Of a DNA stretch of 64,000 bases, positions 55,303 to 58,917 are shown piece by piece. This stretch comes from Escherichia coli. Its GTDB lineage: Bacteria > Pseudomonadota > Gammaproteobacteria > Enterobacterales > Enterobacteriaceae. Each line of letters begins with the position of its first letter. The first letter of the stretch is position 1. The notes under the pieces are model-generated. The model saw only the letters and a program-made list of their open reading frames with translations, did no database searches and was not told the DNA's origin. A program made the position numbers and the translations under genes. The stretch is taken from the NCBI RefSeq assembly GCF_045037415.1, contig NZ_CP173438.1, one strand, 5' to 3'.

Positions 55303-55645
55303 GTTGTGTAACCTGTTGACTATGCTTGTTTAATTATATCCGATCCCACAGCGTGGGGCATGGATGGGCAAACTCACTCAATTTCTGGTTTAAAATGGAT
55401 ACCTGATCCTGGTTGTTTTCTGCCATCCACGATCCGTAAACGCGATAACATGTTTTGTCTTCGCTTTGCTCCCAGGAAGAGTGAACTCTTTCGTTAGCCT
55501 GGGGTTCCTTCTGATCATTATTGTTCCTGCCTTTATCTCTTGCCACGCCAGAGCCCCCTGGATACACATACACCAGGATGAAAACAGTGAGTTGTGTTCA
55601 AACTGTAGTACAATTCTCTCCAGTATGAACAGGAAAGAATATGCT

Positions 55646-55978
55646 ATGAACCCTTATATTTATCTTGGTGGCGCAATACTTGCAGAGGTCATTGGTACAA
55701 CCTTAATGAAGTTTTCAGAGGGGTTTACACGGTTATGGCCCTCTGTTGGCACAATTATTTGCTATTGTGCATCATTCTGGTTATTAGCTCAGACGCTGGC
55801 TTATATACCTACAGGGATTGCTTATGCTATCTGGTCAGGAGTCGGTATCGTTCTGATTAGTTTGCTTTCCTGGGGATTTTTTGGTCAACGACTGGACCTG
55901 CCAGCTATCATAGGCATGATGTTGATTTGTGCCGGTGTGTTAGTCATTAACTTGTTGTCACGAAGTGCACCGCATTAA
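55646..55978 (+). CDS. emrE: SMR-family multidrug efflux protein EmrE
   Basis: ATG at 55646 gives 110 aa MNPYIYLGGAILAEVIGTTLMKFSEGF... closely matching remembered EmrE. Confidence 0.9.
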   Translation: MNPYIYLGGAILAEVIGTTLMKFSEGFTRLWPSVGTIICYCASFWLLAQTLAYIPTGIAYAIWSGVGIVLISLLSWGFFGQRLDLPAIIGMMLICAGVLVINLLSRSAPH

Positions 55979-56146
55979 AAAATAATTATCCTTGAGATAA
56001 CAGGAATCTGATTTGTGCATATTATGGCTAATGTTCGGGGCACCTTTATAATTATGATTGCATTTGCGCGATCATTGCGCCTTTATGCATAATGAGATCA
56101 AGGCACATCAAATAAAATAACGATAGGTCACAACAATGAGGTTTTT

Positions 56147-56698
56147 ATGAAAAAACTTATCGTTTCAAGTGTATTGGCATTCATAACATTTTCTGCGCAG
56201 GCCGCAGCATTTCAGGTCACTAGTAATGAAATAAAAACAGGAGAGCAACTTACAACGTCTCATGTATTTTCTGGATTTGGGTGTGAAGGTGGTAATACAT
56301 CGCCCTCATTAACCTGGTCTGGTGCTCCTGAAGGCACCAAAAGCTTTGCCGTAACTGTGTATGATCCAGATGCTCCTACAGGCAGTGGATGGTGGCACTG
56401 GACTGTTGCTAATATTCCAGCAACTGTAACATATTTGCCCGCTGATGCAGGAAGACGTGATGGTACAAAACTTCCGACTGGTGCTGTTCAAGGCCGAAAT
56501 GATTTTGGTTATGCAGGATTTGGTGGAGCATGTCCTCCCAAAGGAGATAAACCCCATCATTACCAGTTTAAAGTATGGGCTCTAAAAACTGATAAAATTC
56601 CTGTGGATTCTAATTCCAGCGGAGCGTTAGTTGGTTATATGCTTAATGCCAATAAAATTGCAACCGCTGAGATAACACCAGTTTATGAGATAAAGTAG
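56147..56698 (+). CDS. ybcL: Periplasmic PEBP-family protein YbcL
   Basis: 183 aa with signal peptide. Confidence 0.85.
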   Translation: MKKLIVSSVLAFITFSAQAAAFQVTSNEIKTGEQLTTSHVFSGFGCEGGNTSPSLTWSGAPEGTKSFAVTVYDPDAPTGSGWWHWTVANIPATVTYLPADAGRRDGTKLPTGAVQGRNDFGYAGFGGACPPKGDKPHHYQFKVWALKTDKIPVDSNSSGALVGYMLNANKIATAEITPVYEIK

Positions 56699-56707
56699 GG
56701 TAAGAGT

Positions 56708-57505
56708 ATGCTGGCAAAAGATAAGACTAACCTAAAGATTGAAGAAATACGGATGCATAAACATCATGAGATTCACAGGGTTAAGCCTCTTATGCCAGCT
56801 TTATGTCGTATCCGTCAGGGAAAAAAAGTTATCAATTGGGAGACGCATAGTCTAACTGTTGATAATAATCAGATAATATTATTTCCCTGTGGATATGAAT
56901 TTTATATTGCGAATTATCCAGAAGCAGGTCTTTATCTTGCAGAAATGCTTTGTTATCCCATTGATCTAATTGAAAAGTTTCAAAAATTTTATGCGATAAC
57001 TGATCAAATTCGTAACACGACAGGTTTCTGCTTACCTCAGAACCCCGAGTTAATATATTGTTGGGAGCAACTAAAAACATCTATTTCCCGAGGCTTCTCA
57101 ACGCAAATTCAGGAACACTTAGCAATGGGCGTTCTACTTTCATTAGGAGCACATCATGTTAATTGTTTACTTTTATCAGATAGTAAACAATCATTAATAA
57201 GTCGTTGTTATAACCTAATGCTATCCGAACCTGGAACAAAATGGACAGCAAACAAGGTAGCGAGATATCTCTACATTTCTGTTTCCACATTGCATCGCCG
57301 TCTGGCAAGCGAGGGAGTAAGTTTTCAAAGTATATTGGACGACGTGAGGTTAAATAATGCGTTGTCTGCTATACAAACGACAGTAAAACCCATCAGCGAG
57401 ATTGCCAGGGAAAATGGTTACAAGTGTCCTTCTCGTTTTACTGAAAGGTTCCATAATCGTTTTAAGATAACACCAAGAGAGCTAAGAAAAGCGTCCAGAG
57501 AGTAA
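56708..57505 (+). CDS. ybcM: AraC-family transcriptional regulator YbcM
   Basis: 265 aa with C-terminal AraC-type helix-turn-helix. Confidence 0.85.
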
Positions 57506-57661
57506 AAGTATTTTATGAAGGAGCAACAGCATCGATTTTTATTTTGGAAAATAAATACGGCATACTCAACCTATTGGAGTCTGAACAATCCGGTGACTTC
57601 TGCGCTAATCGGGGACGTTTCTAAGCACATATAATTGATACTATCTTCCTCCATCACAATT

Positions 57662-58186
57662 TCAGAAATGCACGTGTGATTTTTTTGCATCCGGCGTTTG
57701 GACTATGTGGAGCTCAAGAGTGGGAAAGTTACAAGAGGTTGAGGGGATAATTAAAGGGATGCTTATGACATTAGATATCCGGTTAGGTACGGATATCGTT
57801 GTTATTAAATCTAGTTGATACGTTAAGATGCAGCTACTGACAAAATAGCCAGGACTCCACAAAACGCCTTTGTCGTAATACCTGACTGCAATATCTGGTC
57901 GATCTCGTCGCAGTAACCTACTCGATACGCCTTTGAGGCTGTTTACCAGACTGGATATCGCCAGTTTGGGAGGATAGTTAATTAACAAATGGACGTGATC
58001 TGGTCCGCCATCCATTTCAACCCGTTCAGCTTCAAAATCAGCACATACATTTGAAAAGTAAGTGCGTAGTTTTTCTGTCGCGTCATGGTCAAAAATCTGA
58101 CGTCGGTATTTAGTAACGAAGACCAGGTGAACATGCTTCAGGAAAACACAATGCCTTCCGCGTCGGATATCGGTTTCTTTTTTCAT
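57662..58186 (-). CDS. tnpA: IS200/IS605-family transposase TnpA (Y1 HuH), with an atypical C-terminal extension
   Basis: Start at MKKETD; HuH motif HVHLL and catalytic Tyr region YFVSS; the C-terminal ~50 aa do not look TnpA-like. Confidence 0.65.
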   Translation of the reverse strand: MKKETDIRRGRHCVFLKHVHLVFVTKYRRQIFDHDATEKLRTYFSNVCADFEAERVEMDGGPDHVHLLINYPPKLAISSLVNSLKGVSSRLLRRDRPDIAVRYYDKGVLWSPGYFVSSCILTYQLDLITTISVPNRISNVISIPLIIPSTSCNFPTLELHIVQTPDAKKSHVHF

Positions 58187-58208
58187 AGGCCAAAGTATGA
58201 TTTGGCCC

Positions 58209-58491
58209 ATGAAACGACTACAGGCATTCAAATTCCGGTTAAGACCAGGTGGTCAACAGGAGCGTGGAATGAGGCGCTTCGCAGGCGCATGTCGTTTCGT
58301 TTTCAATCGTGCTCTGGCGCTTCAGAATGAGAATCATGAGGCCGGTAATAAATACATCCCTTACGGGAAAATGGCTTCCTGGTTGGTTGAGTGGAAAAAT
58401 GCCACTGAAACGCAATGGCTTAAAGATTCGCCCTCACAGCCATTGCAACAGTCACTGAAAGACCCTGAGCGGGCTTACAAAAACTTCTTCC
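58209..58491 (+). pseudogene. tnpB: 5' fragment of tnpB (IS605-family RNA-guided nuclease gene), ~95 codons only
   Basis: MKRLQAFKFRLRP...LKDPERAYKNFF N-terminal TnpB signature, then read-through into antisense yedK. Confidence 0.7.
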
Positions 58492-58917
58492 GGCTTCGTC
58501 ACCACGCTCAAACGGTGTGCTACCTATCGCGGCTATAAAAACAGCTTGTCCATCAGCACGATAGATAAAATAAGGCTGCTTTTTGTCGCCTTCTTTTTTC
58601 CACTCAAACCAGCCATCGGCAAAACAGATTGCCCGACCATGTTGCCAGAGCGGTTTAAACATGTGACTGGTTGCGGCAGTTTCTACGCGGGCGTTAATCA
58701 GCGGCGGTTTATCCCACCATCCGGGAGCATATCCCCAGAAAACCGGATCCAGATGAAGGTGTTCATCACGTTCACTGAGCAGAAGGACTTTGGTTCCCGG
58801 CGCGACGTTGTATCTGCCAATAGGTTCGGGATCGTAGGGAATATCGCGTTCAATATCTTCCGCGAGAAACGCGAGGTAATCTTCACGCGTTTGGGATTGG
58901 GCAAAGCGTCCACACAT
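58420..58917 (-). CDS. yedK: SOS-response-associated peptidase YedK (SRAP/HMCES family), 3'-truncated: ~142 native residues then unrelated sequence
   Basis: MCGRFAQSQTREDYLA... start with catalytic Cys2; similarity to remembered YedK ends after ...STPFERGDEA. Confidence 0.75.
   Translation of the reverse strand: MCGRFAQSQTREDYLAFLAEDIERDIPYDPEPIGRYNVAPGTKVLLLSERDEHLHLDPVFWGYAPGWWDKPPLINARVETAATSHMFKPLWQHGRAICFADGWFEWKKEGDKKQPYFIYRADGQAVFIAAIGSTPFERGDEAGRSFCKPAQGLSVTVAMAVRANL

Follow-up and report, generated by a model that had tools for sequence, protein, structure and literature searches.

A decayed lambda-like prophage carrying emrE, ybcL and ybcM as the probable origin of the fliE-yedK islet of Escherichia coli

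Gene content of the fliE-yedK interval

We analysed a 64-kb stretch of Escherichia coli DNA (64,000 nucleotides, hereafter the window), in which a short islet separates fliE from yedK. The ORF listing, NCBIfam scans and RefSeq annotation agree on the gene order given in an earlier note on this DNA: fliE (54988-55302, + strand) is followed by emrE, ybcL, ybcM, an IS200/IS605-family tnpA and a tnpB stump. The RefSeq annotation of strain SK1144, whose locus is 100% identical to the window, has the same gene content. Beyond yedK come yedF and yedE. The G+C content of the islet is 34-45%, compared with 51-58% in its flanks.

The same note had described the three genes as sitting without phage genes. 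This was wrong, since phage remnants flank them: an attL core, integrase fragments, a nin-region leader and the 3’ fragment of an antiterminator Q gene. An Rfam scan of 54.8-59.3 kb in E-value mode returned no IS605-associated or other RNA family; its sole match, to Ysr206, was a sub-threshold chance hit (18 bits, compared with a gathering score of 124). Counts of promoter and terminator consensus sequences did not exceed the shuffle expectation, so that scan was uninformative.

Attachment site and integrase fragments

The last 21 bp of fliE (GTGATGTCCATGCAGGTGTAG, 55282..55302, +) form a phage attachment core, the attL of the islet. In two relatives, LF82 and F1022, this 21-mer is repeated at the right end of the relic with 19-20 of 21 positions identical (L005 7825 and L004 6644, respectively), and the repeat, attR, directly adjoins the yedK flank. 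The window has lost attR, so the duplication is visible only in the relatives. The same core is the attP core beside int in phage IdasGreatGrand (PP925829; L014 2480), and window positions 55283-55448 share 97% DNA identity with the int 3’ end and attP of that phage, which identifies the 3’ end of fliE as the attB of this integrase family. A full-length int adjoins fliE in eight genomes. FLI21 holds a 13-kb prophage bounded by copies of this core in a tandem arrangement at the fliE site, which has been struck repeatedly by phages.

Beside attL, and reading toward it on the - strand, are two fragments of a tyrosine integrase gene (55320-55569). Fragment 1 (55320..55448, -) encodes the last ~50 residues of a lambdoid tyrosine integrase, matches integrase residues 386-435 in tblastn, and is homologous to the K-12 intG pseudogene; it is common to the K-12 intG stub and to the stub-only allele of O121. 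Fragment 2 (55444..55569, -) is an internal piece of int covering approximately residues 230-277 (75% identity to L014 2992-3107 in blastn; tblastn E = 6e-14), and an internal int deletion of ~345 bp joins it to fragment 1. It is present in LF82 and F1022 and absent from K-12 and O121. In sister genomes RefSeq annotates ‘integrase, partial’ here. IdasGreatGrand is a complete free phage, whereas int is reduced in the window to two pieces that total ~250 bp, the second of them only 75% identical. Between fliE and yedK we found no intact int or xis and no replication, lysis or structural genes for excision or particle formation, and the islet is therefore a relic rather than a prophage.

The cargo genes

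The emrE segment (55570..55987, +) consists of a 76-bp upstream leader and emrE itself (55646-55978), an intact SMR multidrug/quaternary-cation efflux gene. Its product matches NCBIfam model NF042984 over positions 1-110 of 110 with 240.5 bits (cutoff 226) and is identical to K-12 EmrE at 108 of 110 residues, the two amino-acid differences corresponding to a dN/dS of 0.02. The second gene, ybcL (56147..56698, +), is an intact gene for a periplasmic PEBP/RKIP-like protein that belongs to the YbhB/YbcL PEBP family (NF007330, 401.8 bits with a cutoff of 277, positions 1-183 of 183). By eye, the N-terminus of the protein, MKKLIVSSVLAFITFSAQA, resembles a signal peptide. Nucleotide identity to K-12 ybcL is 94.9%, with six amino-acid differences and a dN/dS of 0.08. 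Nine bp further on, in one operon with ybcL, comes ybcM (56708..57505, +), an intact AraC-family regulator gene. YbcM residues ~153-263 match several AraC-family HTH models, all below their equivalog cutoffs, and 243 of 265 residues are identical to K-12 YbcM (dN/dS 0.12); we assign it the AraC/XylS C-terminal double HTH and orthology to K-12 YbcM. Judged by their sequences, none of the three cargo genes is disrupted, and purifying selection acts on each. Their dS values relative to the DLP12 copies range from 0.19 to 0.38.

Functions of the cargo genes are taken from the K-12 and UPEC literature (PMC8464067; PMC4810123). Homology to the K-12 proteins predicts that EmrE exports cations by proton-coupled efflux, that YbcL is a PEBP protein of the periplasm, and that YbcM, a regulator of the AraC type, controls its own operon ybcLM. 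ChIP-exo in K-12 located YbcM upstream of ybcLM, and the accessible part of that report mentions no emrE site for YbcM (PMC8464067).

A search of genome contigs with YbcM returned four loci, E. albertii among them, where the trio lies outside a lambdoid context in an integrase-bearing island that splits the sap operon. Carriers of the trio comprise argU-type lambdoid phages, fliE-type lambdoid phages and this E. albertii island.

Comparison with DLP12, PhiR34_1 and the K-12 intG locus

Phage homology continues without a break downstream of ybcM. Positions 57506..57722 (+) are a lambdoid nin-region leader, homologous to the DLP12 ylcH region upstream of ybcN/ninB. The homology runs continuously with DLP12 to L003 9459 and with Escherichia phage PhiR34_1 to L008 10731, and matching sequence also lies upstream of ninB in further lambdoid phages and in the nin region of phage 82. 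It is followed by the 3’ end of a gene for antiterminator Q, of which ~100 bp are left (57722..57820, +), the nin genes and the 5’ part of Q having been deleted. This Q fragment shares 83% identity with the end of DLP12 quuD (L003 11242-11342) and with PhiR34_1 Q (L008 12504-12604), and 84% with the Q genes of phages ev243, 2G7b and ev207.

As the earlier note stated, the three genes lie inside DLP12 in K-12; their order there is emrE-(ylcJ-ybcK)-ybcL-ybcM. DLP12 carries emrE-ylcJ-ybcK-ybcL-ybcM between renD and ybcN; PhiR34_1 is its live relative, in which emrE follows ren, and the order in both is ren-emrE-(ylcJ-ybcK)-ybcL-ybcM-ybcN...Q-porin(-). The window has the cargo genes in the same order and orientation, and the ren side, the nin leader, Q and the opposite-strand porin are alike. 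The ren, cargo, nin, Q and porin blocks are thus collinear and in the same orientation, and the phage remnants follow the order of live lambdoid phages. Identity to DLP12 and PhiR34_1 is 90-92% for the emrE and ybcLM segments (91.6-91.9% for the emrE segment) and 83% for Q. The 2.1-kb ylcJ-ybcK segment that separates emrE from ybcL in K-12 and PhiR34_1 is absent from the window, which has also lost the lysis and structural genes and is far more eroded.

These comparisons bear on the reading, suggested by the earlier note, in which the trio either came from DLP12 by relocation or began as a free-standing ancestral module, and was moved or trimmed by the adjoining IS605-family element. DLP12 does have the trio in this order, and an IS200/IS605 remnant does lie directly beside the trio, next to a truncated gene. 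However, the copies are only 91-95% identical, a difference of 5-9% that with dS of 0.19-0.38 is too large for transfer within the E. coli lineage and indicates a separate phage lineage rather than a copy of DLP12. The islet also has its own integrase scraps and attL at the 3’ end of fliE, whereas DLP12 sits at argU with a different integrase gene, intD.

K-12 has a counterpart at the same site. The intG locus (‘cryptic prophage PR-G’, between fliE and yedM/yedN/yedL) has the same integrase C-terminal stub beside the fliE stop, but holds yedM, yedN (an espR3-type LRR effector pseudogene) and yedL where the window has emrE-ybcLM. This K-12-type espR/yedL allele has the int stub and no attR core. 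We also considered an int breakpoint shared by the K-12-type and islet-type alleles, which is ruled out: the K-12 stub extends 28 bp beyond fragment 1 of the window, so the two truncations are independent and K-12 carries a different prophage derivative at the fliE attachment site.

The IS609 fragment and the truncation of yedK

The right part of the islet is a 664-bp internal fragment of IS609 (57830..58493), which comprises part of tnpA (57830-58186, -) and codons 1-95 of tnpB (58209-58493, +) in the divergent tnpA/tnpB (insQ) arrangement of the intact element. The fragment is 95.8% identical to intact IS609 (L007 2501-3164), and it was the sole match in the 64-kb window when full IS609 with its flanks was used as query. 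Although the tnpA ORF spans 57662-58186 (-), real TnpA homology is confined to 57830-58186 and the last ~20 codons of the gene are missing; the protein that RefSeq names ‘tnpA’ at this place is a truncated fusion. Model NF033573 matches at positions 2-112 of 126 (E = 3.8e-36), with the HUH region (HVHLL) present and the C-terminal GGAPISAIRQYIEQQ missing, a stretch that by analogy with IS608 TnpA would hold the catalytic Tyr. The TnpB N-terminal stump (58209-~58493, +) retains residues 1-95 of 402 and matches NF040570 over positions 1-92 of 389, which falls short of a RuvC nuclease. The subterminal hairpins of IS609 are absent: neither the left-end sequence CGGTGCGCCGTAAAACCCCGTCC... nor the right-end tip AGGATGTCAAC was found in the 64-kb window, and at 57.5-57.7 kb, where the earlier note had proposed a search for IS605-family end hairpins, the DNA is the phage nin leader and the Q 3’ end. 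Compared with intact IS609, only the central third is here, and the end hairpins, the TnpA C-terminal segment and TnpB residues 96-402 are missing. On this reading of its sequence, the fragment is dead and would be unable to transpose or make a guide RNA.

LF82 and F1022 retain more of the relic than the window does, including the attR copy of the fliE 3’ end beside yedK. LF82 has an intact phage porin gene as well as attR, and LF82-type genomes have the islet without any IS609. In F1022 the porin body is deleted, and an IS609 copy with both tips present occupies the yedK stop codon, between TTATC and AAAC. In this near-complete copy tnpB is interrupted by internal stops and tnpA is defective. 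Because it lies outside attR, IS609 arrived after the prophage. The comparison suggests a decay order of LF82, then F1022, then the window, with F1022 as a stand-in for the intermediate rather than the direct ancestor, since its islet is only 97.5% identical to that of the window.

Two stacked deletion scars at 57817..57837 emerged when the window was set against LF82, whose porin gene is intact, and F1022, which has lost the porin body but has the left end of IS609. One is the junction of the porin-body deletion (GATACGTTAA|GATG), and this junction, GATACGTTAAGATG, is common to the window and F1022. At the other, the porin 5’ remnant meets tnpA across an 8-bp microhomology, GCAGCTAC. At the opposite end of the IS609 fragment, the tnpB’/yedK’ deletion junction (58480..58493) has an exact CGG (3 bp) within an imperfect 13/16 match, where the ends of IS609 and yedK homology overlap. 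What is left of yedK, which encodes an SRAP abasic-site peptidase, is a pseudogene of codons 1-142 of 222 (58492..58917, -) with its 3’ third deleted. Its translation departs from K-12 YedK at residues 143-222, in whose place it reads through into antisense tnpB. The SRAP domain is not full-length (NF007413 matches positions 1-141 of 222 with 322.8 bits, below the cutoff of 349), and RefSeq flags yedK as partial.

An IS605-family remnant lies beside the deletion that truncates yedK, which bears out this part of the earlier note, and the deletions flank the IS on both sides. It might be supposed that the IS609 transposase or the TnpB nuclease made these deletions, which cut short both yedK and the prophage remnant: TnpB, an RNA-guided enzyme, could introduce breaks, and a near-complete IS609 was once there, as seen in F1022. 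The junctions argue against such an IS-mediated origin. The two breakpoints fall within IS609, one at TnpA residue ~119 and the other at TnpB residue 95, and not at the ends of the element, which are both gone, and the F1022 copy already had the tnpB and tnpA defects described above. Moreover, the deletions join at microhomologies of 8 bp and 3 bp, typical of replication slippage or illegitimate recombination, so nothing points to a transposase, and we regard an IS-made deletion as extremely unlikely.

The same observations weigh on relocation of the trio by the IS. IS609 is present on one side only, it is later than the prophage, and LF82-type genomes have the islet without it. IS200/IS605 elements move as single strands and carry only the DNA between their own ends. 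Together with the divergence from DLP12, this makes relocation highly unlikely.

Distribution of the alleles

Of 5426 complete E. coli genomes, 2619 (48%) have the islet at fliE, and it is the commonest allele family at the site. The exact tnpB’/yedK’ junction occurs in 1110 of the 5426 (~20%), and the stub-only allele in 979. Genomes identical to the window include O25b:H4, and SK1144 has a single emrE place. When a synthetic virgin fliE|yedK site was used as query against E. coli genomes, none was present among the best-ranked matches, the best of which was the stub-only allele. The earlier note had named, as what would refute it, that this interval is the common ancestral arrangement in most E. 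coli and K-12 the derived state. This largely holds, with the islet as the commonest allele family, the exact form seen in the window in 1110 genomes, and a different, independently truncated prophage derivative in K-12.

Could the trio then be ancestral Escherichia chromosomal genes at fliE, which lambdoid phages such as DLP12 took up by aberrant excision, with the phage scraps left by later, unrelated integrations? The 48% frequency, the strong purifying selection, the repeated phage strikes at the site (as in the tandem arrangement of FLI21) and the E. albertii trio outside a lambdoid context would all fit. On the other hand, the trio lies between attL and attR in LF82 and F1022, not outside them, the DNA around it follows the ren/nin/Q/porin order found in live phages, and its low G+C sets it apart from the chromosomal flanks. 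In addition, 52% of genomes are without the trio at this site, and aberrant excision takes att-adjacent DNA, which it would not put between ren and nin. We therefore consider an ancestral chromosomal origin very unlikely.

Discussion

Altogether, these data make it very probable that the islet is what erosion left of a lambda-like prophage inserted in the end of fliE, its cargo surviving, and that IS609 and two small deletions came later. Originally, fliE would have ended only ~16 bp from the convergent yedK, and a lambda-like prophage would have entered its last 21 bp by site-specific recombination. Deletions would then have removed most of the phage genes and left the attL core, the two integrase scraps, the nin leader, the last 100 bp of Q and the cargo, which in live lambdoid phages is found between ren and the nin genes. 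The first stage, represented by LF82, would have kept the phage porin gene and attR, and the second, represented by F1022, would have lost the porin body and gained IS609 in the yedK stop codon. In the lineage of the window, two deletions at microhomologies would finally have stripped IS609 of both its ends, of the tnpA segment presumed to be catalytic and of most of tnpB, and yedK of its 3’ third. We infer this order of events, as well as the virgin fliE|yedK site, from the relatives.

The idea that the three genes form a mobile cargo module is supported. Phage ‘moron’ or lysogenic-conversion cargo kept after prophage decay appears, as in the window, as intact, selected genes of low G+C amid phage scars, and the locus is a textbook instance of such retention, with nothing unusual about it. 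The arrangement is common in E. coli and already annotated; it is no new kind of element but ordinary genome decay.

Beyond bookkeeping, the finding matters little. It does account for the location of the only emrE/ybcL/ybcM copy in genomes identical to the window, ybcL being a reported immune-modulating factor of UPEC, and it makes the locus a clean worked example of stepwise prophage decay in which cargo is kept. The 3’ end of fliE emerges as a recurrent lambdoid attB, and roughly one complete E. coli genome in five has yedK as a pseudogene. A bolder and rather improbable reading is that emrE-ybcL-ybcM is a functionally coupled cassette of three genes which selection has kept together across unrelated mobile elements and which outlived its carriers as a domesticated host locus. 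On this reading, the decay would also have destroyed yedK in the ~20% of E. coli with the configuration of the window, and these would be natural SRAP-null strains with altered abasic-site handling.

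Gene content and phage origin of the fliE-yedK islet

Between fliE (54988-55302) and yedK, ORF listing and NCBIfam scans agreed with the gene list of an earlier note on this DNA: emrE (55646-55978), ybcL (56147-56698), ybcM (56708-57505), a minus-strand tnpA of IS200/IS605 type (ORF 57662-58186) and an N-terminal tnpB stump (58209 to ~58493), followed by a minus-strand yedK without its 3’ third (58492-58917) and then yedF and yedE. G+C content is 34–45% in the islet and 51–58% on its fli and yed sides. Among 5426 complete E. coli genomes searched by megablast, some match the 4.4-kb locus at 100% identity, including an O25b:H4 strain, and RefSeq annotates the same locus in SK1144 with the tnpB and yedK pieces marked partial. 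In K-12, the three cargo genes do lie inside DLP12, as emrE-ylcJ-ybcK-ybcL-ybcM, and the fliE-yedK interval holds intG’, yedN’ and yedL in place of the islet genes.

The islet had been described as free of phage genes, but we found an att core, int fragments, a phage-homologous nin leader and the 3’ end of Q. The segment at 55303-55449 shares homology with the intG pseudogene that adjoins fliE in K-12, and a search of sequenced phages matched 55283-55448 at 97% identity to the attP core and the 3’ end of the integrase gene in Escherichia phage IdasGreatGrand, with homology beginning exactly 20 bp ahead of the fliE stop codon. Integrase residues 386–435 were placed at 55320-55468 by tblastn, and residues ~230–277 lie at 55444-55569 (75% DNA identity), with an internal deletion of ~345 bp between the two fragments. 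Further right, DLP12 and PhiR34_1, an intact lambdoid phage, are matched at 90–92% by two segments, 55570-55987 (emrE) and 55992-57722 (ybcL and ybcM plus the following 217 bp); 57722-57820 matches the final 100 bp of the antiterminator Q gene (83–84%). Because these pieces and their order match PhiR34_1 (O-P-ren-emrE-ylcJ-ybcK-ybcL-ybcM-ybcN-ninE-ybcO-rusA-ylcG-Q-porin(-)-S-R-Rz-bor), and emrE lies directly 3’ of ren in several lambda-like phages, the islet is a collapsed lambdoid early-right region. Between emrE and ybcL, DLP12 and PhiR34_1 have 2.1 kb of ylcJ-ybcK (serine recombinase) DNA, at 5655-7739 of the DLP12 locus (L003), that is missing from the window (55987-55992) and from E. albertii.

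Proposed stages of decay

Alleles in relatives suggest how the islet may have decayed, from that of LF82 through that of F1022 to that of the window, which would have undergone two further deletions. LF82 has the order fliE-int’-emrE-ybcL-ybcM-nin leader-Q’-porin(-)-yedK, its Q’-porin block being 91.6% identical to PhiR34_1. Its right end carries a second copy of the 21-bp fliE terminus, ATGATGTCCATCCAGGTGTAG, directly followed by the yedK 3’ flank ATAATCTCCAGGCTTATC. The two copies are attL and attR, so fliE and yedK would have converged within ~16 bp at the virgin site; no virgin fliE-yedK site was present among the best-ranked matches. The LF82 yedK also has a separate frameshift.

F1022 has lost the porin body (junction ACGTTAA|GATG) and has kept attR; its IS609 retains both tips and has lost ~100 bp near the right end. 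This copy (6672-8329 in the F1022 locus, L004) interrupts the yedK stop codon precisely, at TTATC^AAAC and without duplicating the target, and a new stop from the IS609 right end makes YedK one codon longer (672 vs 669 bp). Since TTATC also precedes an unrelated IS609 copy in O157 (L007), it may be the IS609 target. At the Q 3’ end, F1022 has three tandem copies (L004 ~6060-6117) of a ~20-bp unit, GTTGTTATTAAATCTAGTT, that is single-copy in LF82 and the window (~57799-57817).

The window carries F1022’s porin-deletion scar (GATACGTTAAGATG, 57817-57830). In one of its own deletions, an 8-bp microhomology, GCAGCTAC (57830-57837), joins what is left of the porin 5’ end to tnpA; attR, the left end of IS609 and the 3’ end of tnpA were lost with it. 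In the other, codon 95 of tnpB meets codon 142 of yedK at CGG, which lies in an imperfect 13/16 match (58480-58493). TnpA is missing its C-terminal GGAPISAIRQYIEQQ stretch, and 95 of 402 TnpB and 142 of 222 YedK residues are left. IS605-family end hairpins, sought around 57.5–57.7 kb, are absent from the window, since a full IS609 query matches 57830-58493 only. An IS-mediated deletion had been proposed; because the endpoints sit at microhomologies inside IS609, they point to ordinary illegitimate recombination, not transposition. RefSeq names the tnpA product, WP_001347174.1 (57662-58186, minus strand), as if it were an intact 174-aa ‘IS200/IS605 family transposase’; only residues 1–119 are TnpA, and the final ~55 come from translation running on into antisense Q and nin-leader DNA. 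The window yedK is a pseudogene; its intact form encodes an abasic-site crosslinking peptidase of the SRAP/HMCES type.

Recurrent use of the fliE attachment site

The fliE 3’ site is a recurrent attB. Full-length integrase adjoins fliE in eight genomes, and in FLI21 a 13-kb prophage (int-xis-...-exo-bet-IS5-gtrABC) is bounded by two core copies. Beyond the attR of this prophage lies an older int stub, displaced downstream, which shows that the site has been used serially. The FLI21 prophage (L015 20000-33300) is partly decayed, with a frameshifted int, xis, methyltransferases, exo, bet, IS5 and gtrA/gtrB/gtrC-like O-antigen modification genes.

Among the 5426 complete genomes, the int’/emrE junction that marks the islet at fliE occurs in 2619 (48%) and the window’s exact tnpB’/yedK’ junction in 1110 (20%). 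A stub-only allele (fliE-int’-yedK), which arose from the K-12 type by deletion, accounts for 979 (18%), and espR/yedL alleles (K-12 and O157 type) and others for most of the remainder. The espR/yedL allele has the int stub and lacks the attR core. Because the K-12 stub extends 28 bp past the first integrase fragment of the window, the two stubs were truncated independently. In O157 AR-0428 (L013 2252-5966) the espR/yedL allele consists of an espR LRR effector-GNAT unit duplicated in tandem (espR4-GNAT’-espR3-yedL), and yedN of K-12 corresponds to espR3 as a pseudogene. The 5.2-kb contig SFGN01000137.1 (L009; ‘MAG: Lachnospiraceae bacterium W0P5.016’) is 99% identical to the LF82-type fliE-emrE-ybcLM-porin-yedK locus, and almost certainly represents E. 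coli DNA wrongly binned into that MAG.

The prophage relic is common and annotated in RefSeq, and K-12 annotation already marks its site as a cryptic prophage. The earlier interpretation holds for a cargo module and a deletion beside an IS remnant; its absence of phage genes, relocation from DLP12 and IS-mediated mechanism do not hold. The arrangement represents no new kind of element or mechanism.

Divergence, function and mobility of the cargo genes

Relative to their DLP12 copies, emrE is 92.2% identical in nucleotide sequence (dS 0.38, dN/dS 0.02), ybcL 94.9% (dS 0.19, dN/dS 0.08) and ybcM 91.1% (dS 0.33, dN/dS 0.12). These values reflect old divergence under purifying selection rather than a recent relocation from DLP12. 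SK1144, 100% identical to the window here, has one emrE place, so the fliE locus holds its only emrE copy.

All three genes appear to be still functional. EmrE is predicted to mediate proton-coupled efflux of quaternary cations, YbcL to be a periplasmic PEBP protein and YbcM to be an AraC-type regulator of ybcLM. A published K-12 ChIP-exo study shows that YbcM binds the DNA upstream of ybcLM, as an autoregulator, and contributes to survival under peroxide (PMC8464067), and UPEC YbcL reportedly suppresses neutrophil transmigration (PMC4810123). The window YbcL differs from that of K-12 at K3T, S8T, A60V, A88V, A99V and D149E (window residue first), and A99 is mature residue 78 if the signal peptide is 21 aa. 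A V78T difference in YbcL is said to decide the UPEC neutrophil-suppression phenotype.

In E. albertii NBRC 107761, emrE-ybcL-ybcM (82–85% identity to the window, no ybcK) lies in a ~7-kb island (NZ_BBMY01000017.1, 7403-14375) that interrupts the sapABCDF operon between sapC and sapB; the island also has a 409-aa integrase, an OYE-family reductase, a hydrolase and a LysR regulator. Since this island carries the trio too, emrE-ybcL-ybcM travels as one block in no fewer than three mobile contexts.
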